A DNA stretch of 22,040 bases from Pyrobaculum sp. (GCA_046293555.1 JBKBOT010000024.1:1-22040); one strand, 5' to 3'; counted from the first letter of the stretch, positions 5,884 through 21,262 are shown. The notes: a model not told the origin generated them from the sequence alone. A program made the numbers and translations.

Positions 5884-6659
5884 AGATATCTCTTTTTCCT
5901 CTTCCAATACTTTACATCTCTATAGGTGCCTCCCTTAAGTCCTAGGTAAAACTCTTTTACGTCCGGGTTTTCTAAAAGCTGGTCTGAGGGGCCGTCTAAT
6001 ACTATTCTCCCATTTTCTAAAATATAGCCATATTGCGAGATCTTTAATGACATGTATACATTTTGTTCTGCAAGAAGTATTGTAATTTTTTCATTTTCGT
6101 TAATTGACTTAACTATAGAGAATAACTCCTCTACGACCTTGGGGGCTAGTCCAAGAGAAGGTTCGTCGAGAAGCATAAGCCTTGGCCTTAGCACCAACGC
6201 CATTGCTATTACTAACATCTGTTGTTCGCCTCCAGACAGATAGCCAGCTCTTGTTTTTTGCCTCTCTTTCAGCCTAGGGAAGTATTGCAAGGCGATATCT
6301 ACGTCAGGCCTTGACCCCAGTCTCTCAGCTTGTCTCTCTGCCAGCGCCAAATGTTCAGAGACGGTAAGCTCTTCAAATATACGCCTCCCTTCTAACACAT
6401 GGACTATGCCCAGCTTAGCTATTTCTTCTGGACTTTTTTTCACCAGATCTATCTCATTATACGTAATGCTGCCTCTAGTTACCTCACCACGCTCAGTCTT
6501 AGCTATTCCACTTATGGCTTTAAGCGTAGTGGACTTCCCCGCGCCGTTGGGGCCCATTAGGGCCACTGTCGAGCCTGGGGGCACTTTAAGAGAGACAGAT
6601 CTAACGCCTAGAATAAACCTGTCGTATATAACCTGTAGGTTGTCAACAATTAGCGTCAT
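5880..6659 (-). CDS. livF: LIV-type (HAAT) ABC transporter ATPase, LivF-like
   Basis: GPNGAGKST, EGRRIF, LSGGEQQM, LLDEPSLGLAP, AEQN. Basic C-terminal tail YRDVKYWKRKKRYL. Confidence 0.93.
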   Translation of the reverse strand: MTLIVDNLQVIYDRFILGVRSVSLKVPPGSTVALMGPNGAGKSTTLKAISGIAKTERGEVTRGSITYNEIDLVKKSPEEIAKLGIVHVLEGRRIFEELTVSEHLALAERQAERLGSRPDVDIALQYFPRLKERQKTRAGYLSGGEQQMLVIAMALVLRPRLMLLDEPSLGLAPKVVEELFSIVKSINENEKITILLAEQNVYMSLKISQYGYILENGRIVLDGPSDQLLENPDVKEFYLGLKGGTYRDVKYWKRKKRYL

Positions 6660-7972
6660 TAACCTACTGGCTTTATCTCTAGCCCATAATAGTCCCAGCT
6701 AGGTCTTTCAATAGTAATAGTAGCCACTTTTTCCCACGTCCCATCTGGCTTCATAACATATACCCAGACCTCCATGGTGGGCCTGTGGTCGCCTGGCTTA
6801 AATTCGACAGATGCGGCATAGGGGACATTGATGGGGCCCATGGTCTCTAGGGCCTCCTTTATAGCTGGCCCTGAAACATCCTTACCTGTCTTCACCAGTT
6901 GTTCTATGGCTAGTGCCAAAACATAAGCGGCGTGCCAACCTCTTATAGCTGGCTCTTCAGTGGCTTTTACATATTTTAGAAACAGCTGGGCGTCCTTAAT
7001 GCCCTTGTTCGCTAGTGACTTCATTTCGTCGTACATTAAATGGCTTGTTACTCTATATACCCTATTCCCAAGTTTCGAAACTAGGGGGCCTAGAGCGGCG
7101 CCGAGTCTCTCGTTGGCACCCCATACGTTAGTTATCACTATGGCCCTGTCTAGCCCTACTGCATCCATATCTCTTAGTGTCACAATAGTTGGGGCAACAG
7201 TACCCCCTATCCAGATTGCAACGTCGTCACCACATTTGGTCTTTATACGGGTTAACTGTTCTCTTGCACTTACTGCAACTAGTTCCACAATCTCCTCTGC
7301 ACAAATCTCAACTCCTTGTCTTTTTGCCTCAGCCCTAATTGCAGGGAGGGGCTCTAGCCCATAGGGGACGTTGGGATATGTCAATGCAAGCTTAGGCGGG
7401 AGGCCTTTATTGGCAAAATATTGTTTAACAAAACGCACTGCGGCAATTGCGGCATCCTGATAAGATACTGCTGTAAAGAAATTATATGGGTTAACTGTAA
7501 GTGTTACTGTGTAACTCCCGCTGAAATATGGTATCTTGTCTTTGTTTATACTTGGTGCCAGTGCTAACGTATCGCCAGTACCCCACCCCATTATTGCCAC
7601 TACGTTTTGTTGTCTAAAAAACTCGTAGGCGGCTTGGGCTTCCGGTATCTTGTAGCCATAGTCTCTTTCAATACAGTTAATTCTAACGCCTAGTTCTTTC
7701 AGCCGTGTAAGTTCTCCGTTATTAATTGCCTCAAATGCGCCTTTCACACCTTGTGACCAAGCAACTCCGACATCAGCAGTGGCACCAGTTAAGTCAAATA
7801 AACAGCCTACATTTACTACAATCTGGCGAGGAGGGGTGGGAGTTACGGTGGGCGTTGTTGGAGGGGGAGTGGTGGGGGTTGGAGTTGTCGCCGGCGGTCC
7901 TGAGAGCTGTAGTACAGCCATAGCGGCTATTACTATTATTATTACCGCTATTAGGACGTATTTTAACGACAT
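6659..7972 (-). CDS. ABC transporter substrate-binding protein (LIVBP-like), membrane-anchored
   Basis: 437 aa. Hydrophobic N-terminal helix, Pro/Thr linker, then DLTGATADVG, DYGYKIPEA and IMGWGTGDT motifs. Located inside the LIV operon. Confidence 0.9.
   Translation of the reverse strand: MSLKYVLIAVIIIVIAAMAVLQLSGPPATTPTPTTPPPTTPTVTPTPPRQIVVNVGCLFDLTGATADVGVAWSQGVKGAFEAINNGELTRLKELGVRINCIERDYGYKIPEAQAAYEFFRQQNVVAIMGWGTGDTLALAPSINKDKIPYFSGSYTVTLTVNPYNFFTAVSYQDAAIAAVRFVKQYFANKGLPPKLALTYPNVPYGLEPLPAIRAEAKRQGVEICAEEIVELVAVSAREQLTRIKTKCGDDVAIWIGGTVAPTIVTLRDMDAVGLDRAIVITNVWGANERLGAALGPLVSKLGNRVYRVTSHLMYDEMKSLANKGIKDAQLFLKYVKATEEPAIRGWHAAYVLALAIEQLVKTGKDVSGPAIKEALETMGPINVPYAASVEFKPGDHRPTMEVWVYVMKPDGTWEKVATITIERPSWDYYGLEIKPVG
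7829..7897 (-). repeat. Low-complexity Pro/Thr linker within the binding protein
   Basis: PPATTPTPTTPPPTTPTVTPTPP, aa 26-48. Confidence 0.8.
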
Positions 7973-8030
7973 GAAAAGATAACATTATTATAATATAAAA
8001 ATCTATCTTAGATTATATATCATTATAAAT
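7973..8030 (-). promoter_or_regulatory. Internal promoter region for the binding-protein gene
   Basis: Only real gap in the operon. Minus strand TTTTATAT (8000-7993) lies 21-28 bp before ATG 7972. Palindrome AATCTA-N3-TAGATT at 8000-8014. Confidence 0.55.
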
Positions 8031-9076
8031 TAATAATACCTAAATGGGAATAGCCTTATGCGCTCTTTTACTTTTCTTAAAAGCTCTACTGCTCCTAATG
8101 GTTCTTTTAGTAAAAATAAAAGGATTATTCCGCCAAATAATATATCACGTAATGCTATATCTATGCCTCTGAATCCAATTGTAAAAAGCAGATATTTTAT
8201 ACCTTCTGGTACAAGTAATATAAACATACTGCCTAATACGCTACCCCAGACCACACGCCCTAGTCCGCCAATTAGTACTGCCGCTAATACTTCTAGCGAT
8301 GTAGCAAAGGTGAAGCTTTCTACAGTTACAGCTCTGACGGCAAAGGCCCATAACGCACCGCCGATAGCCGCCATATATGCACTTACGCCGAAGGCCACAA
8401 GTTTGTATTTAAACAGGTTGACGCCAATTATTTCCGCAGCTATGTCTCTATCTCTAATAGCCTTTAGAGACCTTCCAATGTACGACCTCCCTAAATTTGC
8501 CAACATAAAGAAATGTAGTAATGCTATGGAAAGGGTTACTATATAGATTTGGTATGTGGTCTGTGCCACAAATGGGCCTATTGACAACGGCGGGGCGATT
8601 TTTGCATAAGCACCGCCGGTGAACCATGCCATGTTTTCTGTTCGAAATAGCCAGTCTAGGAAAAATTGTGCCGCTAATGTACTTACTAGTAGATATAATT
8701 CTTTTAGCCGTAAGCTGGGTAGCCCAAAAAGTAATCCTATCCCTGTGGTTATTAAGCCGGCAAGAGGTATTGCTAAAAGCGGAGGGATACCAGCTTGTGC
8801 AAGATATATGGCTGTGAAGGCTCCAGTAGCCATGAAGGCGCCTTGTGCTAACGATATCTGTCCGCCTAGGCCAAACAGGAAGTTAAGCCCAGCTGCCGAG
8901 AGACTCCATGCCATAACCCACAGCGCCAGTCTGAGTAAGTATTCACCGCCAGTAGCTAAGGGCCATAGATATAAGGCTGGGATTAGGACTCCAATAGCTA
9001 CGTAATGTATAGGCCATTTTATATAAGCTTGGTCTTTTTTATAACTTGTAAAGAATATCCCCGCAGGCATGATCAC
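8030..9076 (-). CDS. livM: LIV-type ABC transporter permease, LivM-like
   Basis: GQISLAQGAF, PSLRLKELYL, GRSLKAIRDRDIAAEIIGVN, LIGGLG. GTG start overlaps the livH stop; an alternative ATG is at 9070. Confidence 0.92.
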   Translation of the reverse strand: MIMPAGIFFTSYKKDQAYIKWPIHYVAIGVLIPALYLWPLATGGEYLLRLALWVMAWSLSAAGLNFLFGLGGQISLAQGAFMATGAFTAIYLAQAGIPPLLAIPLAGLITTGIGLLFGLPSLRLKELYLLVSTLAAQFFLDWLFRTENMAWFTGGAYAKIAPPLSIGPFVAQTTYQIYIVTLSIALLHFFMLANLGRSYIGRSLKAIRDRDIAAEIIGVNLFKYKLVAFGVSAYMAAIGGALWAFAVRAVTVESFTFATSLEVLAAVLIGGLGRVVWGSVLGSMFILLVPEGIKYLLFTIGFRGIDIALRDILFGGIILLFLLKEPLGAVELLRKVKERIRLFPFRYY

Positions 9077-9969
9077 ACACGCTCTATTCGCTCTGTGCCG
9101 AAGAAACCGTATGGCTTAATTAACATTACTATAATCATAACAAGTAGTGGAAATACTTCGCCAAATCCTCCTCCGAAAACTGGGTCTAGATATAGCTTAC
9201 CGACAGCCTCTAAAATACCTATTACCACACCTGCCGCCAATGCGCCCGGAATGCTATCTAATCCGCCGAGGATTATCACAGGTAGAGCCTTAATTGCCAC
9301 TAGCTCTACCTGTCCTGAGACTCCACCTATTATTGCTGCATAAAAAAAGCCGCTGAGAAAGGCAGTAATGCCCGCTAGTAGCCACGACAATAGATATGTC
9401 TCACTTGGCTTAATGCCAAGCGTTAGGGCTGTCTGTCTTTCGTTTGACATAGCCTTCATAGCTATTCCTAATGGAGTTTTGTTGTAAAAGAAATAAAATA
9501 TTGTAAAGGCTATAAACGCCGCCGTAGATGCCCAGAGAAACGTGGCGTTTATAGACAACGGCCCTATTGTATACACGCCGGCGGGTAGAATCTGTTGTGT
9601 AAAAGTCACATATTGCCACCCCGGTAAGCCGGCGCCTAGTTGGAGAAATAGTAGCAAGACCCCTTTTATGACATAAGAAACTCCAATTGTGGCCATTATA
9701 ATTTGTATCACGGGTTCTCCTATCATTGGCCTCATTACGCCTCTCTCCACAAGGACAGCTATTAGAGAAATAGAGACCGTTACTAAGACAATAGCAAGGA
9801 ATATCGACACAAAGGTGGAGAAGTACCAAAATAGGTAGACTGCCATAAGCGACATGGCGCCATATGCCAAGTTAATTACTTTCGAGGCGCGGTAAATTAA
9901 GACGTAACCTATGGCGGTTAATGCGTATATTCCCCCTCTAAGTACCCCATCTAAGACAATTTCTATCAT
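9073..9969 (-). CDS. livH: LIV-type ABC transporter permease, LivH-like
   Basis: GGIYALTAIGYVLIYRASKVINLAYG, TPLGIAMKA, ILGGLDSIPGA, KPYGFFG. Confidence 0.92.
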   Translation of the reverse strand: MIEIVLDGVLRGGIYALTAIGYVLIYRASKVINLAYGAMSLMAVYLFWYFSTFVSIFLAIVLVTVSISLIAVLVERGVMRPMIGEPVIQIIMATIGVSYVIKGVLLLFLQLGAGLPGWQYVTFTQQILPAGVYTIGPLSINATFLWASTAAFIAFTIFYFFYNKTPLGIAMKAMSNERQTALTLGIKPSETYLLSWLLAGITAFLSGFFYAAIIGGVSGQVELVAIKALPVIILGGLDSIPGALAAGVVIGILEAVGKLYLDPVFGGGFGEVFPLLVMIIVMLIKPYGFFGTERIERV

Positions 9970-11885
9970 AACCTAGCTATCTTTACATCCGTCTCTACGT
10001 CTCTAATAGAGCCGTCTTCATAGCGTATCGCCAGTCTAAGTCTGTAACCAGTTGCCCCGGCATATATGGCATTTATTAACCCGCCATATTTTTCCTCTAT
10101 AAATAGCCTCCTGAGTTTTCTCGTGCGGGTCATTTCTCCATCATCTGGGTGGAATTCTTTAAATAACGAAACAAAGGCCTTTACTTTAAGCTTCTCCGGT
10201 AGTTGGCCATTTACGTTGTTCACCACCTCCCCCAATAGTTTATATACTTCGTCCTTTTGGCTTAGGTCTTGGTAACTCGTATAGGAGACCCCACGCCTCT
10301 CTGCCCATTTAGACACAGTTTCAAAGTTTATGTTTAAAATTGCTATTACATACGGCTTGTCTTTGCCGTAGACAAAAGCCTCTTTTACATATGGGCTGTA
10401 CTTAAGCATGTTTTCAATAAACAGGGCACTGAACACAGTGCCGTCGTTTAGACGCTGGAGATCTTCCTTCCTCCCTAGATATATCAAATGTCCATCTTCC
10501 GTCAACATGCCCACATCTCCCGTATAAAGCCACCCATCTCTTAACGCCTCTGCAGTGGCCTCAGGCCTCTTGTAGTAGCCCACCATCACTGCCGGAGTTT
10601 TTACTAAAATCTCGCCGTCTTCAGCAATTTTAATTTCCGTATTGGCTATAGGCTTCCCCACTGTGTCAGACCTTACGTCGTTATTTAGATGTACTGTGGC
10701 AATTCCAGAGACCTCTGTCATGCCCCAAATTCTCTTTAAATTAACGCCCATGCCTCTAAAGAATTTTAAGTAGTCTGGCCCAAGAAACGACCCTCCTACA
10801 TAGGCATATCTCATTCGCTTTAACCCTACCTTATCTAATACAGACCTGAACACAAGAAGCCGCATTATTTGCCAAAATATCTCTTCCCAGGGGCTTAACT
10901 TCCCGTGCCGCATTTCTACTTCAGCCTTCTTAGCCCCAAATTTTATGGCAAATTCAAAAATTTTTCTATCTAACGGACTGGAGTCTTCTAGATATTCCAT
11001 AATTCTACTATAGATCATCTCATATATTCTAGCAGGCCCGAAGATTACATGTGGGGCAATTTCTCTGAAGTCTCTCCAGAAAGTCTCGGGCTCTTCTACA
11101 AAATTTACCCTAAACCCAGCAAGTAGGTGCATAGATAGCGACATCATTTGTTCCCCAATCCACCCAAACGGCAGGTAGGAGATATATTCGAAATCTGGCC
11201 ATATTGGGTCTATTTCCCACAGGTTTTTTGCCATTGACAATAGGGACGCATAAGTTAACATCACAGCTTTAGGCTTGCCAGTTGTGCCAGAAGTAGATAG
11301 AAATAGACAGACGTCATCAGGCGACGTGGCGTCAGTTAGTTGATCTAATAGTTTAGGCTCTGTCTTCTTAACCTCCCCTCCCAATTTTACCACCTCTTCC
11401 CAGCTTGCTAACCTTGGCTTTTTTACATCTCTATATTGCCACATCATCCTGTCGTCCCAATATATAATATATTCTAACTTAGGTAGATTTTCTTTTACTG
11501 CAAGTATTTTATCTACCTGCTCCTGGTCTTCTGCAATAACAATTTTCACATCTGTATAGTCTAGCCAATACGCCCTCTCTTCTGGTAGAGTATCTTGATA
11601 CATCCCCACGGCCACTCCTTTAGTTGCAAACACAGCCTGTTCTGCGATGAGGATCTGCGGCCTGTTATAGCCCACAACTGCCACATGGTCGCCTGGCTTA
11701 AGTCCTAAAGCCAATAGACCATATGCAAAATCCTGCGCTGCGGCGTAGTAATCATGCCATGTATAAGGCCTCCATATGCCTTTTATCTTTTCTCTAAAGG
11801 CGATAGCCCTCGGCATCTTAATTGCCCTTTCTCTTAAAAGTTTTGGAAATGTATCTCCTTTCAACTCCTCCCAAGGCTTTCTCAT
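9966..11885 (-). CDS. Long-chain acyl-CoA synthetase (AMP-forming) embedded in the ABC operon
   Basis: 639 aa. STSGTTGKPK, WGMTE, GWLYTGDVG, LGRKED and GEMTRTRKLRR; all adenylation motifs intact. Confidence 0.92.
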   Translation of the reverse strand: MRKPWEELKGDTFPKLLRERAIKMPRAIAFREKIKGIWRPYTWHDYYAAAQDFAYGLLALGLKPGDHVAVVGYNRPQILIAEQAVFATKGVAVGMYQDTLPEERAYWLDYTDVKIVIAEDQEQVDKILAVKENLPKLEYIIYWDDRMMWQYRDVKKPRLASWEEVVKLGGEVKKTEPKLLDQLTDATSPDDVCLFLSTSGTTGKPKAVMLTYASLLSMAKNLWEIDPIWPDFEYISYLPFGWIGEQMMSLSMHLLAGFRVNFVEEPETFWRDFREIAPHVIFGPARIYEMIYSRIMEYLEDSSPLDRKIFEFAIKFGAKKAEVEMRHGKLSPWEEIFWQIMRLLVFRSVLDKVGLKRMRYAYVGGSFLGPDYLKFFRGMGVNLKRIWGMTEVSGIATVHLNNDVRSDTVGKPIANTEIKIAEDGEILVKTPAVMVGYYKRPEATAEALRDGWLYTGDVGMLTEDGHLIYLGRKEDLQRLNDGTVFSALFIENMLKYSPYVKEAFVYGKDKPYVIAILNINFETVSKWAERRGVSYTSYQDLSQKDEVYKLLGEVVNNVNGQLPEKLKVKAFVSLFKEFHPDDGEMTRTRKLRRLFIEEKYGGLINAIYAGATGYRLRLAIRYEDGSIRDVETDVKIARL

Positions 11886-12661
11886 ACAGCCGCCCCTATA
11901 TATGCCTTTGTCACCAACTCGCTTTTTAGTATCTCTGAGGGGGGCCCCTCCGCTAGCTTCGCGCCGTAGGTCATGACCGCCACTCTGTCTGCAATGTCGT
12001 ATACGAGAGACAGGTCATGTTCCACAAGAACTATAGTCATCTTCATGATTTTATTTAACTCGATAATATATCGCGCAACGTCTTCTCGTTCCTCTCTGGT
12101 CAAGCCAGACATGGGCTCGTCTAGCAGTAAAACACTAGGTCGGCCAGCCAACGCCCTGGCTATATCCACCTTCTTCTGTAGACCGTAGGGGAGTGTGCCC
12201 ACCGGCTTATGTCTATATTCATATAGCTCCATAAATTCAATTACCTCTTCTGCAATTTCCCTAAAACGAGTTTCTTTTTTAAAATAAGGCCCGTGCCATA
12301 ACACGGCTGGCAAAAAATCAAGAAATACTCTATCTTCTACCGCCGCAATTGCGCCAGTCATCACAGCCTCAAGTACAGTCATATGTCGGAAGACCTCAGA
12401 AGTTTTTTGAAAAGTTCTACCAATGCCCAACTTCGCCCGGACGTGAGGCCTCGTTTTTGTAATATCACGGCCTTTATATATAACAAATCCCTTTCTAGGT
12501 TTTATAAAACCGGAGATTACATTTAGTAAAGTGGTCTTCCCAGCGCCATTTGGGCCAATTATGCCTAAAATTTTTCCCGCTTCTACTTCAATAGATATAT
12601 CTCTAAGTGCATAAACACCACCAAACCTTACCTCAATATCGTCAGTTTTCAATATTTCCAT
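11882..12661 (-). CDS. livG: LIV-type ABC transporter ATPase, LivG-like
   Basis: RFGGVYAL, GPNGAGKTT, GIGRTFQ, LPYGLQK, LLLDEPMSG, VEHD. Confidence 0.93.
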   Translation of the reverse strand: MEILKTDDIEVRFGGVYALRDISIEVEAGKILGIIGPNGAGKTTLLNVISGFIKPRKGFVIYKGRDITKTRPHVRAKLGIGRTFQKTSEVFRHMTVLEAVMTGAIAAVEDRVFLDFLPAVLWHGPYFKKETRFREIAEEVIEFMELYEYRHKPVGTLPYGLQKKVDIARALAGRPSVLLLDEPMSGLTREEREDVARYIIELNKIMKMTIVLVEHDLSLVYDIADRVAVMTYGAKLAEGPPSEILKSELVTKAYIGAAV

Positions 12662-12680
12662 AGGAAAAACATATATTCAC

Positions 12681-12696
12681 TATTTAAACTTTTATC
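12681..12696 (-). promoter_or_regulatory. BRE/TATA promoter of the ABC transporter operon
   Basis: Minus strand GATAAAAG-TTTAAATA; the TATA element lies 20-27 bp before ATG 12661. Confidence 0.6.
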
Positions 12697-12828
12697 ATTA
12701 TAAATATGTAATAAGAATTTATATTTTTGACAATATAAAAAGTGTTAGTAATTTTAGCAAAATGAAAAAATTTTATAAATATAAAGAAATTTTCAAAAAA
12801 TTCTGAATATGAATGTATTTATTTATAA

Positions 12829-13164
12829 TTATTTCTGAGACTTTCTTATGGCATACCAGAGTTTATCTCCTATGTAAGTTATCGTCCATTCCACCCCCTC
12901 TCCTATTTCTACAGGCTCTAATGCATATGCTGGGAGTTGGAATTTGTCAAATTTAACAATGGCGACGTGATATGGAGTGGGGAATCTTCTAGTTGATATA
13001 TAAACCTCGCTATGTGTTATAACCACGCCTTTCTTAGGTATGTCTACAGTCTCCATTGGGCCACGGCAGTGGGGACACATGGATCTTGGCGGGAATATGG
13101 CTACATCACACTTTTTACAATAAGACCCCACCAGCTTATTTTGTCGTAACCACTGTTCTATCAT
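12829..13164 (-). CDS. DUF35 Zn-ribbon/OB-fold thiolase partner protein
   Basis: 111 aa. CKKC...FPPRSMCPHC, GVVITHS, PYHVAIV. ATGA-coupled to the upstream thiolase. Confidence 0.9.
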   Translation of the reverse strand: MIEQWLRQNKLVGSYCKKCDVAIFPPRSMCPHCRGPMETVDIPKKGVVITHSEVYISTRRFPTPYHVAIVKFDKFQLPAYALEPVEIGEGVEWTITYIGDKLWYAIRKSQK

Positions 13165-14291
13165 ATGGAAAAGATGTGGATCACCACTGCGGAGTTTACT
13201 CCCCCCTCGTTTACCGTCATGCCAATTTTTGCATTTGTTAACCTCTTTCCAGCCCCGCCTGTGAGCTGGAGATAGATCTCATATATCTGCGCCAGCCCGG
13301 TGGCCCCTATCGGGTGGCCTCTTGCCTTGAGGCCCCCGCTTGGGTTTATCGGAATCTTCCCGCCGATATAGGTCTGCCCCTCTCTAACTAATTTATAGCC
13401 TTCTTTCCTCCTGGCAAAGCCTAGGGCCTCGTACATTAACACCTCGTTTATTGTAAAGGCGTCATGTACCTCAGCTACCTGTACATCTCTTGGCTCTATC
13501 TTGGCTTGTCTATACGCCTTCTGCGCCGCCTCCCACACGGCTGTAGGCCAAGCTATGTCTGGTCTTTGTGACACGCTGAGGGTATCTGTGGCTACCGCAG
13601 AGGCCAATATCTTGACCTTGTCTTTAAACCTTCGTGCAGCCTCTTCAGAGGCTACAACCGCCACAGCCGCGCCGTCGCTAATTGGCGCAGAGTCTAAAAG
13701 TTTAAGCGGCTTGGCCACAGGTCTGCTTTTTAGACATTCTTCTAGAGTAATGGCCCTCTGGAAGTGGGCCTTGGGGTTATATGTTGCATGTTGGTGATTT
13801 TTCACAGCGACTAGACAGAGATCTTCTTCTGTTGCACCGGCCTCGTACATATACCGGCGGGCTACCATGGCGTAATGTGCTGGTATCGTCACGCCGCTTT
13901 CTCTATCTACATAATGGCTAGCAGACATGAGGGCCTCCGTGGCAACTTCGGTGCCGGCGGCGCTCATCTTCTCTACCCCAATAGCCACAGCTATATGGGC
14001 TTCTCCAGATTTCACAGCTAAGTAGGCATTTCTAAAAGCCAGAGCGCCGGCGGCGGCACATGCCTCCACTCTATAGGCCTCTTTTGGAAGTAGGCCCAAG
14101 GCCTCTGCCGCAAGAGTTCCATACATAATCTGGTGTTCATATACCTCAGATTGTACCCCCACATATACGGCGTCAATTAGGGCTGGGTCTACTTCAACTT
14201 CTCTAAAGGCCTCTATAATTAACTCTGTGCTGTTCTCTTCTCTTTTCCCTATCTTGCTCATCCCAGCTGCAACAAGATAGGCATTACCCAT
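13161..14291 (-). CDS. Archaeal-type thiolase (acetyl-CoA C-acyltransferase, SCP-x-like)
   Basis: 376 aa. RVEACAAAG with Cys, GVEKMS, ISDGAAVAV, EVHDAFT, NPSGGLKARGHPIGATG. Confidence 0.92.
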   Translation of the reverse strand: MGNAYLVAAGMSKIGKREENSTELIIEAFREVEVDPALIDAVYVGVQSEVYEHQIMYGTLAAEALGLLPKEAYRVEACAAAGALAFRNAYLAVKSGEAHIAVAIGVEKMSAAGTEVATEALMSASHYVDRESGVTIPAHYAMVARRYMYEAGATEEDLCLVAVKNHQHATYNPKAHFQRAITLEECLKSRPVAKPLKLLDSAPISDGAAVAVVASEEAARRFKDKVKILASAVATDTLSVSQRPDIAWPTAVWEAAQKAYRQAKIEPRDVQVAEVHDAFTINEVLMYEALGFARRKEGYKLVREGQTYIGGKIPINPSGGLKARGHPIGATGLAQIYEIYLQLTGGAGKRLTNAKIGMTVNEGGVNSAVVIHIFSI

Positions 14292-14324
14292 AAGTTTTAA
14301 ATAAGTATAGGTTTTATACTTTTA
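14292..14324. promoter_or_regulatory. 33-bp bidirectional promoter between thiolase (-) and aldehyde dehydrogenase (+), with inverted repeat
   Basis: + strand TTTTAAAT at 14295-14302. Minus strand TATAAAA at 14318-14312. AAGTATA-N5-TATACTT at 14303-14321. Confidence 0.65.
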
Positions 14325-15761
14325 ATGATAAAGATAAAACATTACATAAATGGCCAATTTATAGAAGGCGAGGAATATAGAACTAAAAAATCTCCTATCG
14401 ACGGGACCCCCATCGCTGAGGCTCCGGTGGGGAGAAGAGAAGACGTAAAAGCCGCAATAGACGCAGCTTACGACGCGGCTAAGACGTGGGGGCAGATGCC
14501 AGCCATTAGAAGAGCCGAGCTGTTGTATAAACTACATGAGGTCATTAAGACTAGAGAAGAGGAGCTGATCTCCATGTTGACCATAGAGGGGGGCGGCATT
14601 TATAAGAAGAGCTGGGGCGAGGTGGTTTTCTCACAGAGACTTGTGAGAAATGCCGCCGAGTTGGCGAGACATTTCGGCGGACGTACTATGCAGCCTGACG
14701 CGGAGGGGATAATCTCCACAGTTTTTAAAAAGCCTAAGGGGGTGGTGGGGGTTATTACGCCGTGGAATTACCCACTTTCTATCAGCATGAAGAAGATTGC
14801 CCACGCCTTGGCTGTGGGAAATACCGTAGTGTATAAGCCCGCCAGCGAGACTCCACTTACCGGTTTTAAAATTGCCGAGATGATCCACCAGGCTGGCTTC
14901 CCCAAGGGGGTCTTTAACCTCGTCATCGGCCCCGGGCCTGTGGTGGGGGACGAGATTGTGGCTAACAGGAAGATCTCCCACGTGACCTTTACCGGCGAGA
15001 GTTCTACTGGCAGAGAGATTGCCGCCAAAGCCGCCGGGACTTTAAAAACTGTGACGCTTGAGCTAGGGGGTAGCGACCCGTTGATAATTCTAGACGATGC
15101 AGACTTGGGGCTTGCGGTGCGTATTGCGGTATTTGGCGCCTTTTTCCACCAAGGCCAGATCTGTACCTCTAGCAAGAGGATTATTGTACATGAGAAAGTC
15201 TATAAACAGTTTTTAGAGAAGTTTGTAGAGAGAGTTTCACAACTTAAAGTAGGCGACCCTAGAGACAAGTCTACAGAACAGGGGCCGTTGATTTCTGTCA
15301 AGCAGGCTGACCAAATGGCCGAGTTTTATAGAGACGCAGTAGGGCGTGGGGGGAGGGTACTCACAGGCGGCAAAAAAGACGGCGCCTATTTCTGGCCCAC
15401 GGTGGTGACTGATGTGGACAGACAGTTTGGGGTAATGCGCGAGGAGGTGTTTGGCCCCATAAGGCCCGTGGTCCCTGTAAAAAACGACGACGAGGCTGTA
15501 GAGGTGGCTAATGACACGGAATATGGCCTCTCGGCCGCCGTGGTTACTACAAACATAAACCGGGCCTTCAAAATCGCGGAGGCTATAGAAAGCGGCATGG
15601 TGCATATAAACGACGTCACCATGTTAGAGGAGAGCCACGTGCCCTTTGGCGGGATTAAGGCCAGCGGTTTTGGCAGAGAGGGCGGGGAGTGGTCTTTTCT
15701 CGAAACCACCTACGACCGGTGGCTCACCATCACTCTAAGAGAGCGGAAGTACCCCATATGA
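14325..15761 (+). CDS. NAD(P)-dependent aldehyde dehydrogenase, aromatic-aldehyde (vanillin/benzaldehyde DH-like) type
   Basis: 478 aa. ITPWNYP, KPASETP, FTGES, LELGG, FFHQGQICTS (catalytic Cys), EEVFGP, GMVHINDVT...HVPFGGIKASG. Confidence 0.93.
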   Translation: MIKIKHYINGQFIEGEEYRTKKSPIDGTPIAEAPVGRREDVKAAIDAAYDAAKTWGQMPAIRRAELLYKLHEVIKTREEELISMLTIEGGGIYKKSWGEVVFSQRLVRNAAELARHFGGRTMQPDAEGIISTVFKKPKGVVGVITPWNYPLSISMKKIAHALAVGNTVVYKPASETPLTGFKIAEMIHQAGFPKGVFNLVIGPGPVVGDEIVANRKISHVTFTGESSTGREIAAKAAGTLKTVTLELGGSDPLIILDDADLGLAVRIAVFGAFFHQGQICTSSKRIIVHEKVYKQFLEKFVERVSQLKVGDPRDKSTEQGPLISVKQADQMAEFYRDAVGRGGRVLTGGKKDGAYFWPTVVTDVDRQFGVMREEVFGPIRPVVPVKNDDEAVEVANDTEYGLSAAVVTTNINRAFKIAEAIESGMVHINDVTMLEESHVPFGGIKASGFGREGGEWSFLETTYDRWLTITLRERKYPI

Positions 15762-16537
15762 TACAGCTGGCTGGAGGGAAGGTAGTTCTAGAGTGGGTAG
15801 AAGAGGGGATAATGCAGCTGGCTTTGAACTACCCCGAGCGGCATAACGTCATCACGCTAGAAATGAGGAAGGCTATCGGCGAGGCGGCAGGCGAGGTGGC
15901 AAAAAGCGGGGCTAAAGTGTTGATAATCTCTGCTGTGGGCGACAAGGCCTTTTCGGCGGGGGGAGACATGAGGGAGTTTTTAAACGTCACAGTGGCCGAC
16001 GTCTTGGAGTGGGGCAGGACTTTAACCATGCTGGAGGAACTCCCCGTGGCTACAGTGGCGGAACTCAAGGGCTATGTCCTCGGCGGCGGGCTTGAGCTGG
16101 CCATGTCTTGTGACATTAGAATAGCCTCAGAGGACGCAGAGCTGGGACTTCCCGAGGTGCGACTCGGCATGGTGCCGGCCAGCGGCGGGCTGACTAGAGT
16201 AGTCAAGGCGTTAGGCCCCCTTAAGGCTAGGTACTACTTACTTTTGGGAAAAAGGATTAAGGCCGGCGACGCGTTGGCTCTTGGACTTGTAGATGAGGTA
16301 GTCTCCAGGCAGGAGCTAAGAGGTAGAGTGCTTGAGGTGGCTAGGGAGTTGCGATCTCTGCCCCCTCTAGCTGTTAGGGAGGTGAAGAAGTTAGTTATGT
16401 TGATAGCTGACGCCCCGAGGGAGGTTGGGTTTGACCTGGAGAGAAAGACCTTCGGCGTGTTGAGATATAGCAAGGATTTTGAAGAGGGGGTTAAGGCCTT
16501 TTTTGAGAAAAGGACGCCGAAATATAGAGGCGAATGA
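15758..16537 (+). CDS. Enoyl-CoA hydratase/isomerase (crotonase) family protein, HmfE (2-oxoglutaroyl-CoA hydrolase)-like
   Basis: Real start most likely ATG 15758 (ATGA overlap with the ALDH stop); 259 aa. AFSAGGD, GGGLELAMSCD, LPEVRLG, DFEEGVKAFFEKRTPKY. The HmfE resemblance is from recall and gene context. Confidence 0.9.
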   Translation: MIQLAGGKVVLEWVEEGIMQLALNYPERHNVITLEMRKAIGEAAGEVAKSGAKVLIISAVGDKAFSAGGDMREFLNVTVADVLEWGRTLTMLEELPVATVAELKGYVLGGGLELAMSCDIRIASEDAELGLPEVRLGMVPASGGLTRVVKALGPLKARYYLLLGKRIKAGDALALGLVDEVVSRQELRGRVLEVARELRSLPPLAVREVKKLVMLIADAPREVGFDLERKTFGVLRYSKDFEEGVKAFFEKRTPKYRGE

Positions 16538-18828
16538 CATATAGAGAGGGCCTTAGGGCGGTTACGGGGGCTGGGGAGTATATAGACGACTTGCCAGTGC
16601 CGCCAGGGACGCTCCACATGGCCATATATAGAAGCCCCTATCCCCACGCCAGGGTGAAAAAAGTAGATGTGTCTGACGTATGGAAGAAAGGGGGGATGGC
16701 CTTCGGCCCAACAGAGCTTTTAAAAGTTGTAAAAAGGCCATTTCCCAACGCCCTGGGGCTACCTATAAGATATTACCCAGTTGCAGTAGATAAGGCTAGA
16801 TACTTCGGCGAGCCTGTGGCTGTGGTTTTGGCTGAGGATAGATACAAGGCCGCAGACCTTTTAGATTACGTCTCTGTGGACTTCGAGCCGCTGGAGCCCG
16901 TGGCCACGGTGGAAGAGGCGTTGAAGGGCGACATCTTGATACACGGGGAGTTACGTTCTAACGTGGCTGTGGAGAGACATATGGCCTTTGGAAATATGGA
17001 GGAGGCCTTTAGAGGGGCCAAGGTTGTGGAGTTTCAGTTTAAGTTTCCTCGACACACCGCCATGCCTCTAGAGCCCTATGGAGTTGTGGCTTATTTTAAA
17101 GAAGAGCTAAACATATGGGCAAATATCCAAGGTCCCGCCCTATATATGTACTTCATAGCACAAGCGTTAGACTTGCCCACTTCTAGAATTAGGCTACAAA
17201 CCCCTAGAGACATCGGGGGAAGTTTTGGCATTAAGTACTCGATATATCCCTACATAGTCTTAACCGCCGCCGCGTCTAGGCTGGCGGGGAGGCCCGTCAA
17301 GTGGGTCGAGACCAGGATGGAGAGCCTGGCCGCCAGTAGCTCAAATGGCGAGAGGCGCGGGGTGGCGAAAATTGCGGCAACACGAGACGGCGTGATCAAA
17401 GGGCTGAAGTTCGACTTTATAGAAGAGGTGGGTGCCTACCTAAGGCCCCCAGAGCCCGGGGCCTTGTATAGAGTTCACGGCAACCTCAACGGGGCTTACG
17501 ACGTGAGGGCAATAGAGGTGCGACATAGGGTGGTTTTTACCAACAGGATGCCCACGGGCTTAAACAGGGGATATGGCGGCCCCCAGTTCTACTTTGCCCT
17601 AGAGAGAGCTGTGGATGAGCTGGCCAGAGAGCTGGGGGTAGACCCACTGGAGCTTAGGCTAAGGAATTTGGTGAAGAGCTTTCCGATTGAGGCACAGGGC
17701 TGGAGGTTTTATGAGACCGCCACAGGGGGGCTCTACCCCATGCAGGACTACGTCGCGGTGGTGAAGGCTCTGGAGGGGGAGTATTTAAAGTGGCGGGAAG
17801 AACAGAGACGGGGCAGAAGGGTGGGGGTAGGCGTGGCTGTAATAATAGAGCCCAGCGGCACAAACCTCGGCTATGTAGACGTTGCGTTGGAGGCAGAGAG
17901 GAGGAAGTATCCCCATTCGGGCGCTGGGGAATATGTGGCGATTAGCCTAGATCCCCACGGCGCGGTGAATGTGTTTGTAAACGCCACCAACGAGGGGCTT
18001 GGGCACGAGACGGCCCTAGCTGAGGTGGTGGCTAGAGAGCTCGGCGTCTCTCCTGACGCCGTCAAGGTGACCTATCAAGTCGACACCTCTCACATATGGT
18101 CTCTCTCAAGCGGGAGTTACTCCAGTAGATTTGCCCCCGTGGTGGTAAGCGCCGCTATTGTGGCCGCCAGGAGGCTTAAAGAAAAGATCTCTCTCCTAGG
18201 CGCTGCGTTGCTTAAGGCAAAGAGGGTGGCCTACGGGGAGGGGTATGTATACGATGTGGATAACCCAGAGAGAAGAGTAGACTTGAGAAGGCTTGTCTCT
18301 ATGGTGCATTGGGACCCCGGCGGCCTGCCTGAGGGGGTAGAGGGGGATCTATCCGCAGTGGCTTACTTCCACCCTCCCACCGTAAAGGCGCCTGTTGGCG
18401 ACAGGGTTAACTCCTCAGCCGCTTATGCCATACAGGCCCATCTGGCCGTCGTGGAGGAGATAGATGGCGAGGTGCGGCTTATCAGATATGTGGTGGCCCA
18501 CGACGCCGGCCGTATCTTAAACTTGCGGCTATTGGAGGGACAGCTGGCGGGCGGCATACATCACGGGATTTGTATGGCCATGTATGAAGAGCTTAAATAC
18601 GGCCCAGACGGGGTGCCTATGTCGCTCACGCTTGAGAGCTACGGCGTGCCAGACCTCTCCGATTTTGTGGGCGTGGAGGTGAGTTTTATACATTTCGAGA
18701 CTCCTGTGGCCTATCTGCCGTCAGGCGCCTTGGGTTCTGGCGAAGGTCCCGTAATGGGCGCGCCGGCGGCTGTGGCCAACGCGGCTGCCGACTTGTACAA
18801 AAAGACAGTGACACAACTGCCCATATGA
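16534..18828 (+). CDS. Xanthine-oxidase-family Mo-hydroxylase large subunit, HmfA (2-furoyl-CoA dehydrogenase)-like; not CoxL
   Basis: 764 aa. VTGAGEYIDD, RSPYPHA, IGGSFGIK, active-site loop LNRGYGGPQ (17560-17586), EGLGHET, GSYSSR, HDAGRILN, GSGEGP with the catalytic Glu. Confidence 0.9.
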   Translation: MTYREGLRAVTGAGEYIDDLPVPPGTLHMAIYRSPYPHARVKKVDVSDVWKKGGMAFGPTELLKVVKRPFPNALGLPIRYYPVAVDKARYFGEPVAVVLAEDRYKAADLLDYVSVDFEPLEPVATVEEALKGDILIHGELRSNVAVERHMAFGNMEEAFRGAKVVEFQFKFPRHTAMPLEPYGVVAYFKEELNIWANIQGPALYMYFIAQALDLPTSRIRLQTPRDIGGSFGIKYSIYPYIVLTAAASRLAGRPVKWVETRMESLAASSSNGERRGVAKIAATRDGVIKGLKFDFIEEVGAYLRPPEPGALYRVHGNLNGAYDVRAIEVRHRVVFTNRMPTGLNRGYGGPQFYFALERAVDELARELGVDPLELRLRNLVKSFPIEAQGWRFYETATGGLYPMQDYVAVVKALEGEYLKWREEQRRGRRVGVGVAVIIEPSGTNLGYVDVALEAERRKYPHSGAGEYVAISLDPHGAVNVFVNATNEGLGHETALAEVVARELGVSPDAVKVTYQVDTSHIWSLSSGSYSSRFAPVVVSAAIVAARRLKEKISLLGAALLKAKRVAYGEGYVYDVDNPERRVDLRRLVSMVHWDPGGLPEGVEGDLSAVAYFHPPTVKAPVGDRVNSSAAYAIQAHLAVVEEIDGEVRLIRYVVAHDAGRILNLRLLEGQLAGGIHHGICMAMYEELKYGPDGVPMSLTLESYGVPDLSDFVGVEVSFIHFETPVAYLPSGALGSGEGPVMGAPAAVANAAADLYKKTVTQLPI

Positions 18829-20153
18829 GGCCTCCCTACCCAAGGCCTTTTAAATACGTCAAGGCCATTTCTATAGATGAGGCTTTGGGCTACATAAAAG
18901 AGGGTTTTAAACCTCTGGCGGGGGGCCAGTCTCTATCCACATTACTCAAACTAGGCCTAGTCTGGGTGGAGGGGCTTGTGGACATTTTTGAGATCGACGA
19001 GTTACGGTACGTCGCCTTAGAGGGCGAGACGTTAAAAATCGGCGCTCTTACAGTTCATAACGACGTGGCGATGCATGAAGACATTGTACATCACGCCCCG
19101 GCTTTAGCCAAGGCCGCGTGGCATATTGGAGACCTACAGGTGAGAAATAGGGGGACAATAGGGGGCTCCATAGCCCACGCGGACCCCGCCGCCAATTACC
19201 TCCCGGTCCTCATGGCGCTAGGCGGAGAGATACAACTAGCAGGTCCGGGGGGCCGCCGGCGTGTGGCAGTGGAGGATTTCGTAAAGGGGCCATACGCCAC
19301 GGCGGCTGAGGGGGAGCTGGTGGTTGAGGTGTCTGTGCCGAGGTGGCCGCTACAGGCGGTTGAGGTAATCAAGAGGCGGGGCGCGGCGTACCCCAGCCTC
19401 GTCCTGGCGGCAGCTGCCCGTGTAGAAGACGGCGTGGTGGTCAAGTCCAGAATTGCGGTGGGAGGGCTCTACACCACGCCAGTGGTGGCCAAAGGCGCTC
19501 TCGACGGGCTTTCTCTAGGGGAGCTGCCTGAGGCCGAGGTGTCTCTACCTGAGGGGGACCCATATGACGACCCGCATATGAGATATGTGGAGAAGAGAGA
19601 GGCGTTGCCGAGATACCTCCAGCGGCTTTTACAACAGCTGGGCCAGGGATACCGCTGGGCTCTACCACTGAGGCGCGAGTTAACCATGTGGCGAGGGACG
19701 GGCAATACGGCAACGCTAAATGGGGTTAAGACAGAGATAGATACAGAGCCTAGAGTCTTGCTGATTGACTACCTGAGGTCAAAGGGGCTGAGGGAGGTGA
19801 GGAGGGGGTGCGACGAAGGGAGGTGTGGGGCTTGTACAGTCCTGGTGGACAAAAAGGCTGTTAAAAGCTGCACCCTATTTGCCCCACAGGCGGCGGGCCA
19901 CGTGATTGAGACTGTGAGATCTATACAAGGCCACCCAATACAGAGGGCGTTTTTAGAGGAATACGCCTCTCAATGTGGTTACTGTACCCACGGCTTTATG
20001 ATGGCTCTAGTAGATTACTTCACTATAGACCTAGAGGCTAGAGACGAGGTTTTAAAACTCTCTATTAAAAACATATGTAGATGTACAGGTTATATAAATA
20101 TCATAAAGGCGATAAAAAAAGCTTCTTATATACTTCTCTCTAAAAATTTATAA
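18825..20153 (+). CDS. Fused FAD-binding (medium) and 2x[2Fe-2S] (small) subunit of the Mo-hydroxylase
   Basis: 442 aa. N-terminal LAGGQSL, IGDLQVRNRGTIGGS, ADPAA. C-terminal GCDEGRCGACTV...KSC and QCGYC...NICRCTGY. Confidence 0.92.
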   Translation: MRPPYPRPFKYVKAISIDEALGYIKEGFKPLAGGQSLSTLLKLGLVWVEGLVDIFEIDELRYVALEGETLKIGALTVHNDVAMHEDIVHHAPALAKAAWHIGDLQVRNRGTIGGSIAHADPAANYLPVLMALGGEIQLAGPGGRRRVAVEDFVKGPYATAAEGELVVEVSVPRWPLQAVEVIKRRGAAYPSLVLAAAARVEDGVVVKSRIAVGGLYTTPVVAKGALDGLSLGELPEAEVSLPEGDPYDDPHMRYVEKREALPRYLQRLLQQLGQGYRWALPLRRELTMWRGTGNTATLNGVKTEIDTEPRVLLIDYLRSKGLREVRRGCDEGRCGACTVLVDKKAVKSCTLFAPQAAGHVIETVRSIQGHPIQRAFLEEYASQCGYCTHGFMMALVDYFTIDLEARDEVLKLSIKNICRCTGYINIIKAIKKASYILLSKNL

Positions 20154-21262
20154 ATTGTATTTAATATAATTTCATTTGTGCCCTCATATATCTCTGTAAC
20201 TTTTGCATCTCTATATAACATCTCCACATGTGAGTCTGTAGAATAGCCGTAGCCCCCCAGTATTTGTACCGCCAGTCTAGTCACCTCCACGGCAGTTCTA
20301 GATCCCAGCAGTTTTGACACTTGTGCATATAGCGGAAATTGGGGGTCTCCGCCATCTTTCATCTTGGCCGTGGTGTAGACCAGGGTTCTAAGGGACTCCA
20401 CTCTGGCGTACATCTCAGACAGGTAGTGTTGTATTGCCTGAAACTCCGTCAGAAGTTTGCCGAAGGCAGCCCTCCTCCTGGCGTAATCAAGGGCTTGGCT
20501 AAAGGCCTCTTCTGCAATGCCCAGCCCAATAGCCCCAACGTTTAGCCTCCCCTGGTTAATGCCATACATAGCCACAGACCACCCCCCGTTTATCTTCCCC
20601 ACCACGTCCTCATCTGAGGCTGGACATCGGTCTAGTTTTACCTCTGCTGTACCTGTGCCCCTGACCCCCATCACCTCTATTGGCGTGGTCTCTATACAAC
20701 TGCCTCTTTTTACTATAAACGCCGTTATGGTCTTGTGTCTTTCCTCTCTTGCCCCAGTCCGGGCGAATACGAGAAAGTAGTCTGCATAAAGGCCGGAGGT
20801 TATCCAGGTCTTTACCCCATCTATCCTCCACTCTCCCCCCACCTTCTCCGCCCTAGTCTCTATGGCGGCTGCATCACTACCACAACAAGGCTCAGAAAGC
20901 GCAAAAGCGCCAACAGCCTCGCCGGTAGCCACCCTAGCCAACACCTCCCCCCTCTGAAACCCGGAGCCGTGTGTGAATAAGCTGTGTGTAAAGACCACGC
21001 CGGATATGGCGGTCAAAAAGCCAAATGCGCCACTTGTTTTTGCCAACTCCTCCACCACCACCACCGCCGTTCTTAAATCTCCATCCCCTCCGCCGTATTT
21101 TGAGGGGATTGTGGGGGCTAGTAGGCCTAGTCTGGCTGCCTCGCGTATTGCCTCTCTGGGGTAGTAATTTTCTCTATCCATCCTCCTGGCGAGGGGCTCC
21201 ACGACGTTGGTGGCAAACTCTCCAGCAGACTTCTTAACAAGAAGATGCTCTTGACTCAACAT
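20126..21262 (-). CDS. Acyl-CoA dehydrogenase (ACAD-2; catalytic Glu present)
   Basis: 378 aa. Same N-terminal half as ACAD-1; QILGGYGY, YRDAKVTEIYEGTNE. The 3' end overlaps the convergent FAD/FeS gene by 28 bp. Confidence 0.94.
   Translation of the reverse strand: MLSQEHLLVKKSAGEFATNVVEPLARRMDRENYYPREAIREAARLGLLAPTIPSKYGGGDGDLRTAVVVVEELAKTSGAFGFLTAISGVVFTHSLFTHGSGFQRGEVLARVATGEAVGAFALSEPCCGSDAAAIETRAEKVGGEWRIDGVKTWITSGLYADYFLVFARTGAREERHKTITAFIVKRGSCIETTPIEVMGVRGTGTAEVKLDRCPASDEDVVGKINGGWSVAMYGINQGRLNVGAIGLGIAEEAFSQALDYARRRAAFGKLLTEFQAIQHYLSEMYARVESLRTLVYTTAKMKDGGDPQFPLYAQVSKLLGSRTAVEVTRLAVQILGGYGYSTDSHVEMLYRDAKVTEIYEGTNEIILNTIYKFLERSI

Follow-up and report, generated by a model that had tools for sequence, protein, structure and literature searches.

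A Pyrobaculum operon with an HmfA-family molybdenum subunit and an HmfE-clade crotonase as a candidate archaeal counterpart of the bacterial 2-furoate pathway

Introduction

Furan catabolism has, to our knowledge, been described so far in bacteria only. Heat and acid turn pentoses into furfural and furoate, and the habitats of Vulcanisaeta, Thermocladium, Sulfolobales and some Pyrobaculum are hot, often acidic springs. Whether archaea of this kind harbour a pathway for furans is the question raised by an operon on contig C24 of the 1.75-Mb, 96%-complete genome of Pyrobaculum sp. (GCA_046293555.1; G000 in this study). The stretch of DNA analysed, hereafter the window, comprises 22,040 bp (JBKBOT010000024.1:1-22040), and the operon consists of four open reading frames (ORFs) of the + strand spanning positions 14325-20153, which encode an aldehyde dehydrogenase (ALDH), a crotonase, the large subunit of a molybdenum (Mo) enzyme and an electron-transfer subunit. 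The comparisons presented below make it very probable that the operon serves a hydroxylase pathway for some (hetero)aroyl-coenzyme A (CoA), and they favour, with noticeably less assurance, its interpretation as the archaeal counterpart of the bacterial 2-furoate (Trudgill/hmf "lower") pathway with furoyl-CoA as substrate.

The motif ATGA is found at all three junctions of the operon (15758, 16534 and 18825), each start codon overlapping the stop codon before it, and both the ORF listing and the junction sequence bear out the four ATGA-coupled genes of a preliminary description of this locus. Upstream, the crotonase reading frame stays open as far as a GTG at 15689 (15689-16537); since the ATG at 15758 gives the ATGA overlap and a product of 259 aa, a length as in the homologues, it was taken as the start.

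Family placement of the molybdenum large subunit

The 764-aa large subunit exhibits the architecture of the xanthine dehydrogenase family, with a hammerhead and two molybdenum-cofactor-binding domains (Pfam Ald_Xan_dh_C, PF01315; MoCoBD_1, PF02738; MoCoBD_2, PF20256), and its GSGEGP, which aligns with the GxGE of all family members, contains the catalytic glutamate. The closest named homologues come from Pyrobaculum sp. (77%), P. ferrireducens (72%), Vulcanisaeta (61%), Thermocladium (55%) and Sulfolobales (53-56%). In annotated plasmids the large subunit is matched best (~40-41% identity) by the genes that open the hmfABCDE-type clusters of Cupriavidus pinatubonensis, Dinoroseobacter shibae (pDSHI01) and Geobacillus kaustophilus (pHTA426). 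The three bacterial HmfA proteins obtained 545-614 bits against the large subunit in a phmmer search, that of G. kaustophilus being the highest (614), and in the reverse search they preferred this gene (548-613 bits) to the only other paralogue of the genome, located on contig C28 (281-365 bits). The best matches of known structure were CoxL (311 bits), quinoline oxidoreductase (270 bits) and 4-hydroxybenzoyl-CoA reductase (185 bits). None of the NCBIfam equivalog cut-offs was reached by the large subunit, the scores being 427 against 790 for glyceraldehyde dehydrogenase alpha (NF041018), 303 against 991 for carbon monoxide (CO) dehydrogenase (TIGR02416) and 276 against 994.55 for 4-hydroxybenzoyl-CoA reductase alpha (TIGR03194); NCBIfam holds neither an HmfA nor an HmfE model.

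Two phylogenies were built. The first (IQ-TREE, quick mode) comprised 64 hand-picked rows and 801 columns, with one partial ORF left out. Seventeen archaeal rows, 14 of the type found in this operon and three of a second, Sulfolobaceae type, formed one clade (support 100), which together with 39 bacterial HmfA-type rows (86) made up a joint clade with a support of 99. Outside it fell eight rows, among them XdhB, PaoC, the C28 paralogue and four further paralogues taken from plasmids or retrieved loci. When 32 of the 64 rows were analysed again in a more careful run, 24 of them separated from the eight outgroups at 100/99 and the archaeal rows were recovered at 100/100; the monophyly of the bacterial rows in this tree is weak (74/59). 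Named sequences of CoxL form I, Qor, Kdh and HcrA are represented in the comparison by their scores against solved structures (PDB) and not by rows of the trees. The archaeal clade is accordingly assigned by sequence to the HmfA family, either as a sister branch or as an early branch within it. The preliminary description had placed the large subunit in this family, and the phylogeny upholds that placement: the protein groups with HmfA-type sequences verified by their gene context, and neither with CoxL-like proteins, XdhB and PaoC nor with the other paralogues, CoxL form I, Qor and HcrA having been compared by PDB score only.

In the 64-row tree, a haloarchaeal copy carried by a plasmid of Halorussus vallis (L004:5295-14380) nests among the bacterial HmfA-type rows. 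Its neighbours code for two AMP-ligases, a PaaI thioesterase, a BenE transporter and XdhC, with no crotonase among them, and this copy looks like a transfer from bacteria that works with a different hydrolase.

Active-site motifs

Five sequence blocks had been quoted earlier as characteristic of the large subunit, and all of them are present in the 764-aa protein (residues 300-322 and 336-358, EPSGTNLGY at 439-447, residues 522-534, and DRVNSS at 623-628); they are common to the HmfA proteins of D. shibae, C. pinatubonensis and G. kaustophilus, and not to the outgroups. Written as G[AG]YxRxPEP, PTGLxRG[YF]GG, [ED]PSxxNxGY, WxxxxGxYSSRF and [VI]NSS, the blocks occur in the six archaeal and six HmfA-type rows of the motif table (the three species just named, an Amycolatopsis and two others) and are missing from seven of the seven outgroups shown in the alignment.

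In the HMMER alignment, the loop PGGVAYRCSFRVTE of the form I CO dehydrogenase 1ffu aligns with the second of these blocks (residues 336-358), and PGGVAYRCSFR of 1ffu corresponds to LNRGYGG. The large subunit has no Cys at the position of the CO dehydrogenase loop, and neither the form I sequence AYxCSFR nor the form II sequence AYRGAGR is found anywhere in it; the C28 paralogue does contain AYRGAGR. The earlier statement that a cox/cut annotation does not fit this gene stands as far as the absence of the loop is concerned, but of the quoted blocks the second, not the first, is the counterpart of the loop.

The crotonase

Seventy crotonase sequences were collected, and 68 rows remained after two duplicates had been dropped: 26 HmfE proteins from hmf-type clusters, 12 archaeal sequences, the eight nearest bacterial hits and 22 further crotonases, 15 of which are the remaining paralogues of two bacterial genomes with hmf genes. 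In the resulting tree the 46 rows of the first three groups are split from the 22 others at 97/98, and the archaeal rows are monophyletic (100/100). All five residues specific to the clade (R42, G74, M143, S147 and R241), each present in at least 87% of the sequences inside it and at most 17% of those outside, are found in the operon crotonase, so the likeness to HmfE noticed in the preliminary description is confirmed by a position inside the HmfE clade, apart from the other crotonases. The operon crotonase and the bacterial HmfE proteins match identical generic NCBIfam models, below the cut-off, a result that speaks neither for nor against membership; many homologues of the operon crotonase carry the IMG label "2-oxoglutaroyl-CoA hydrolase". 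Both canonical glutamate positions of crotonases are retained, and thioester or lactone hydrolase chemistry is for this reason not readable from the sequence. The general crotonase of the genome is a FadB-like gene on contig C13.

The fused electron-transfer subunit and its maturation

The last gene of the operon encodes a 442-aa chain in which Pfam recognises the flavin adenine dinucleotide (FAD) domain FAD_binding_5 (residues 8-174) followed by Fer2 (297-349) and Fer2_2 (362-431). The CO_deh_flav_C part is shortened (23.5 bits, below the cut-off of 25.5) and is followed by a linker of ~70 residues. By its domain content the chain is the counterpart of HmfB and HmfC in one polypeptide; the fusion proposed earlier is thus visible as the Pfam domain order of a single protein. 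The FAD/iron-sulphur (FeS) fusion is retained in the examined loci of Pyrobaculum, of g9, which is probably Vulcanisaeta, and of Sulfolobaceae, and is split in g8. As the only copy in genome G000, XdhC probably serves both the enzyme of the operon and that of C28. Searches with the bacterial counterparts detected no CoxG/SRPBCC protein in this genome.

The aldehyde dehydrogenase

The ALDH of the operon is an orthologue of the crystallised AlDHPyr1147 (P186_1147) of Pyrobaculum sp. 1860, which it matches over residues 2-478 with 736.5 bits (PDB 4H73 and seven related entries, 5EEB and 5EK6 among them); the ALDH copy beside the crotonase gene of genome G095 likewise scores 736 bits. Among proteins of known structure, benzaldehyde and 4-hydroxybenzaldehyde dehydrogenases follow at 366 and 355 bits. 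According to the accessible part of its published description (PMC5121451), AlDHPyr1147 is NADP-specific and oxidises short aliphatic aldehydes, with no activity towards betaine aldehyde or succinic semialdehyde; its activity with two aromatic aldehydes was not measurable, and that part of the text makes no mention of furfural. The "aromatic-aldehyde type" previously assigned to this ALDH therefore holds only in part: its nearest other solved relatives are indeed dehydrogenases of aromatic aldehydes, but AlDHPyr1147 itself is reported to act on short aliphatic aldehydes.

Distribution and synteny

A survey of 120 genomes of the class, with G000 among them, detected the Mo subunit (E <= 1e-150) in 20 and the crotonase (E <= 1e-60) in 17; 16 genomes carry both and 99 neither. 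Four genomes have the Mo subunit alone (three of g8 and one that is 54% complete), and a single genome, 63% complete, has the crotonase alone. Within the genus, ALDH, crotonase and Mo subunit are present in an identical set of 5 genomes out of 18. Because related genomes are not independent, this co-inheritance represents a few gain or loss events and not 120 trials.

The order ALDH-crotonase-Mo-FAD/FeS is kept in two congeners. In genomes G095 and G103, the genes for thiolase, DUF35 protein, a 426-aa ligase, Mo subunit and FAD/FeS chain are co-oriented and overlapping, and they lie beside the genes for ALDH, crotonase and a 612-aa ligase and an ATP-binding cassette (ABC) transporter. Each of the four related Pyrobaculum loci has an acyl-CoA dehydrogenase gene next to the cluster. 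In Sulfolobaceae, the Mo gene of the type present in the window retains its fused FAD/FeS partner, and the crotonase orthologue sits in ligase-crotonase-Mo clusters whose Mo gene is of the second type and which have no FAD/FeS genes of their own.

This second Sulfolobaceae type (L135:6339-11137 of genome G208; L050:7430-12292) branches deeply, with 40-43% identity, and its enzyme may borrow the fused FAD/FeS chain encoded elsewhere with the first type. HmfA-type subunits of 37-40% identity were also found in 16 of the 16 sampled genomes of f24, a family of Thermoproteota (L138, L139), where their genes directly adjoin those of a Liv-type ABC transporter. Several copies are broken: the 426-aa ligase (G098:C1:1734400-1735281) and a Mo subunit (G081:C10:31096-32982) are interrupted by four stops each, the Mo subunit and FAD/FeS genes of V. 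distributa (L040:9983-13779) are both split in two, and single in-frame stops occur in a g9 crotonase (G083:C1:2019595-2020338) and a Sulfolobaceae Mo gene (G453:C1:571458-573719). These copies suggest loss of the pathway in some lineages, or sequencing errors.

Genomic neighbourhood

The features of the window are listed in Table 1.

Table 1. Features of the operon and its surroundings, numbered from the first nucleotide of the window.
Feature	Position	Strand	Basis or remark
XdhC-type molybdenum-cofactor insertion factor	3887-4630	+	Pfam XdhC_C, 96 bits
ANL-family acyl-CoA ligase, short, 426 aa	4627-5907	-	Pfam AMP-binding
Liv-type ABC uptake system: ATPase, substrate-binding protein, two permeases	5880-9969	-	Pfam
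Second ABC ATPase of the Liv-type system	11882-12661		Pfam
DUF35 zinc-ribbon/OB partner of thiolase	12829-13164	-	Pfam
Thiolase	13161-14291	-	Pfam; divergent from the operon
A+T-rich divergent intergenic spacer, 33 bp	14292-14324	.	Between thiolase gene (-) and ALDH gene (+)
NADP-type aldehyde dehydrogenase (ALDH), 478 aa	14325-15761	+	Pfam Aldedh, 552 bits
HmfE-clade crotonase, 259 aa from ATG at 15758	15758-16537	+	Pfam ECH_1, tree, signature residues
HmfA-family molybdenum large subunit, 764 aa	16534-18828	+	Pfam, trees, motif table
Fused FAD-binding and two-[2Fe-2S] electron-transfer subunit, 442 aa	18825-20153	+	Pfam
Acyl-CoA dehydrogenase	20126-21262	-	Pfam; convergent with the FAD/FeS gene, 28-bp end overlap

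In the spacer upstream of the operon, inspection of the sequence revealed TTTTAAATA 22-30 nt before the ATG of the ALDH gene and, on the opposite strand, TATAAAA ~20-27 nt before the ATG of the thiolase gene. The two are probably back-to-back archaeal TATA boxes, which would give leaderless transcripts.

For the step that would activate the acid, the window contains nothing HmfD-like. A weak candidate for this step is the 426-aa ligase, whose gene in G095 and G103 immediately precedes that of the Mo subunit, the stop codon of the one overlapping the start codon of the other; homologues of this ligase bear generic names only. Ligases resembling acetyl-CoA synthetase adjoin the ALDH gene in all four congeners, and their orthologues in G000 are found on other contigs. 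A second ALDH-ligase pair is located on contig C31 (8728-12031).

The Liv-type ABC system, a possible importer of the acid, is of the branched-chain amino-acid type and adjoins the crotonase-ALDH genes in G095 and G103. The window holds three of the six thiolase-type genes and two of the four acyl-CoA dehydrogenase genes of the genome, together with all three DUF35 genes matched by a DUF35 query and Pfam and the only XdhC gene. The adjacency of thiolase and acyl-CoA dehydrogenase genes to the operon may be functional or, as the stretch is such a general CoA-ester island, incidental. The segment 12001-13000, which takes in the spacer between the ABC ATPase and DUF35 genes (12662-12828), has the lowest G+C content of the window (0.37 as compared with 0.43-0.59 elsewhere).

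Proposed function and its alternatives

As regards the substrate and product of the enzyme and the roles of ALDH, transporter, thiolase and acyl-CoA dehydrogenase, we infer the following scheme. The NADP-dependent ALDH would oxidise an aldehyde such as furfural to the acid, which a ligase other than an HmfD orthologue would convert to the CoA ester. The HmfA-family Mo enzyme, composed of the large subunit and one fused FAD/[2Fe-2S] chain and matured by the single XdhC, would then hydroxylate the ring of the (hetero)aroyl-CoA with oxygen derived from water and without O2, electrons passing from Mo through two [2Fe-2S] clusters and FAD to an acceptor. Finally, the HmfE-clade crotonase would open or hydrolyse the product, which in the bacterial model leads to 2-oxoglutarate. 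The most likely substrate appears to be 2-furoyl-CoA, thiophene- or pyrrole-2-carbonyl-CoA being possible.

A number of observations weigh against a furoate pathway and must be borne in mind. The large subunit shares 39-45% identity with bacterial HmfA, and as the bacterial rows are only weakly monophyletic, the archaeal sequences may form a sister group that differs in specificity; the evidence on this clade consists of sequences and gene linkage. HmfB and HmfC match the subunits of the C28 enzyme equally well or better than the fused chain. Bacterial HmfE proteins score 118-145 bits on the operon crotonase and 112-176 bits on the FadB-like protein, and since these raw scores are about equal, the two are distinguished only by the tree and the signature residues. 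The three bacterial HmfD proteins find no orthologue in the genome, their best matches lying on contig C13 (139-196 bits), and the 426-aa ligase does not co-occur cleanly with the operon, as four stops interrupt it in the operon carrier G098, and six genomes that carry it lack the Mo subunit. In the accessible text of PMC5121451 the characterised orthologue of the ALDH favours short aliphatic aldehydes. In g9 the Mo genes and the crotonase each lie amid unrelated genes, and in most Sulfolobaceae the Mo genes likewise have only unrelated genes around them. The bacterial pathway, in turn, has no role for the thiolase/DUF35 and acyl-CoA dehydrogenase genes that are conserved next to the operon.

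The bacterial side of the family has ties to furoate, but its association with HmfD and HmfE is not uniform. A scan of species-representative genomes yielded 80 loci, three archaeal and 77 bacterial, which were inspected for HmfD-type (at least 350 bits) and HmfE-type (at least 200 bits) proteins. Both were found in 57 of the 77 bacterial loci, and in 48 of the 53 that are at least 20 kb long, which speaks for such a pathway. A further 17 of the 77 have neither (A-B-C only), which also counts against a furoate pathway; they fall into short contigs on the one hand and a subclade of uncultured bacteria on the other. Given this subclade, not all members of the HmfA clade need act on furoyl-CoA. 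It includes Tectomicrobia, Binatia, Acidobacteria and Deltaproteobacteria (L062, L082, L085, L097, L098, L100, L101, L105-L107, L109 and L118).

The alternative that survives best, possible but clearly less probable than furoyl-CoA hydroxylation, is that the same chemistry is directed at another substrate (thiophene-2-carbonyl-CoA, pyrrole-2-carbonyl-CoA or an aryl-CoA), the ring-opened product of which would enter thiolase/DUF35/acyl-CoA dehydrogenase steps and not end at 2-oxoglutarate. This would suit the long separate branch of the archaeal clade with its limited identity to HmfA, a ligase type that differs from HmfD, the constant vicinity of acyl-CoA dehydrogenase, and the arrangement in G095 and G103, where thiolase, DUF35 and ligase genes run with the Mo genes and overlap; moreover, other CoA-linked Mo-hydroxylase clusters of unknown function are known, for instance on a Bradyrhizobium elkanii plasmid. 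However, the blocks of the active-site region are almost identical to those of HmfA, the crotonase with its five signature residues is nested in the HmfE clade, and in a general CoA-ester island the vicinity of the said genes may mean little.

Catabolism of aliphatic or branched-chain acyl-CoA is improbable. In such a pathway, made up of the Liv transporter, an isobutyraldehyde-active ALDH, acyl-CoA dehydrogenases, crotonase and thiolases, the Mo enzyme would act on a non-aromatic compound or an aldehyde. The plentiful beta-oxidation genes of the island, the branched-chain amino-acid type of the transporter and the activity of AlDHPyr1147 on short aliphatic aldehydes, as reported in the accessible part of its description, are all in keeping with it, but the Mo subunit and the crotonase belong specifically to the HmfA and HmfE clades, the genome has its general crotonase in the FadB-like gene on C13, Liv-type transporters flank the hmf cluster of D. 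shibae as well, and the score with the glyceraldehyde dehydrogenase model falls far below its cut-off. The identities that generic annotation would suggest, namely CO dehydrogenase, CutA-type aldehyde oxidoreductase (aldehyde dehydrogenase) or 4-hydroxybenzoyl-CoA reductase, are highly improbable and were rejected, for although the fold and domain set are shared, the best PDB match is a CoxL and NCBIfam gives partial matches, all three model scores lie far under the curated cut-offs, the match to the solved 4-hydroxybenzoyl-CoA reductase is weaker still, the CO dehydrogenase loop is replaced and lacks its Cys, and in the trees the protein joins HmfA and not the C28 paralogue with its AYRGAGR.

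Significance

The locus had been regarded in the preliminary description as an undescribed system. No paper on an archaeal hmf pathway was found in the open-access literature, as judged by titles and abstract openings, but the expression is too strong, since homologues of the large subunit already carry the IMG label "2-furoyl-CoA dehydrogenase large subunit" and an orthologue of the ALDH has been crystallised. Should the operon indeed encode a furoate pathway, this pathway would be extended to a second domain of life and to ~80-100 °C, the crystallised "orphan" ALDH would gain a physiological role, and heat-stable enzymes for the detoxification of lignocellulose hydrolysates would become available. 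Among the carriers of the operon, for example P. ferrireducens and Sulfolobus acidocaldarius, there are culturable and genetically tractable ones, so that the idea is directly testable.

A broader proposition, which we consider rather doubtful, is that hyperthermophilic Thermoproteota degrade five-membered heteroaromatic acids (furoate arising abiotically from sugars in hot and frequently acidic springs, or thiophene- or pyrrole-2-carboxylate) independently of O2. The two-gene enzyme responsible, made up of the large subunit and the fused FAD/FeS chain, would then be coupled to another type of ligase and to a branch with thiolase/DUF35 and acyl-CoA dehydrogenase. If this were true, what follows ring opening would be unlike the route in bacteria, and the first gene-level thiophene- or pyrrole-carbonyl-CoA hydroxylase could be a member of this clade.

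Comparison with known systems

With CoxL (forms I and II) and quinoline 2-oxidoreductase, the large subunit of Pyrobaculum shares the fold, the domain order and the catalytic glutamate in GxGE. It differs from them in that the AYRCSFR or AYRGAGR loop is replaced, the scores amount to only 230-311 bits and the clade is a separate one. HcrABC (PDB 1RM6), the other enzyme of the xanthine dehydrogenase family known to act on an aroyl-CoA, is a reductive dehydroxylase and far more distant (185 bits). As to AlDHPyr1147, it was studied as an isolated thermostable enzyme, and the accessible part of the report (PMC5121451) discusses neither its physiological role nor its gene context.

A CoA-linked Mo-hydroxylase cluster of another kind is carried by plasmid pK07G of B. 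elkanii (L125:37-7653; a relative at L114:5482-7845). It encodes a crotonase, FAD and 2Fe-2S subunits, a lactonase-like protein, a Mo subunit, an SDR protein and an AMP-ligase, and its large subunit falls outside the HmfA clade.

Among Gram-positive bacteria, the cluster of G. kaustophilus pHTA426 has the order XdhC, MobA-like, A, CoxG, B, C, D, E; furfural degradation by strain HTA426 is mentioned as a preliminary report in the accessible part of PMC3223595. In actinobacterial D-A-E-B-C clusters the crotonase gene adjoins that of the large subunit, as it does in Pyrobaculum. The Gram-positive hmf-like clusters nevertheless differ from the archaeal operon, their subunits being separate, an HmfD-type ligase always present and CoxG encoded in bacilli. 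In the actinobacterial loci L041-L064 (e.g. L041:13443-15197) the ORF matching HmfC is ~1.2 kb long, more than twice the usual size of a 2Fe-2S subunit, and may carry an extra, perhaps CoxG-like, domain.

The closest comparison is with hmfABCDE of C. basilensis HMF14, C. pinatubonensis JMP134 and D. shibae DFL12. Equipped with hmfABCDE only, C. pinatubonensis JMP134 can grow on furoic acid (PMC8091172, accessible part), and D. shibae DFL12, which shares 54% HmfA identity with C. basilensis HMF14, is listed as a confirmed furfural degrader (PMC3223595, accessible part). HmfB and HmfC are separate proteins in bacteria and one 442-aa chain in Pyrobaculum, and the large subunit of the latter, at 764 aa against 983-1012 aa, is without the C-terminal extension of bacterial HmfA. 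CoxG/SRPBCC, which is fused in proteobacteria and separate in bacilli, is absent from the Pyrobaculum genome, as is an HmfD orthologue, which the bacterial clusters do have; CoxG is not universal in bacteria either, a separate gene for it being present in 13 of the 77 bacterial loci. The gene order ALDH-E-A-BC is unlike that of hmfABCDE, the operon is set in a thiolase/acyl-CoA dehydrogenase island, and the host is a hyperthermophilic archaeon. What the archaeal and bacterial systems have in common is the large-subunit family with its signature blocks, a crotonase of the HmfE clade, the FAD and 2Fe-2S modules and XdhC nearby. An ALDH gene accompanies 19 of the 77 bacterial hmf-type loci, and on pDSHI01 of D. 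shibae, where the order is ALDH, AraC, A, B, C, D, E followed by a Liv-type ABC transporter, the cluster is joined by both an ALDH and a transporter of this type, just as the hmf-like genes of Pyrobaculum are.

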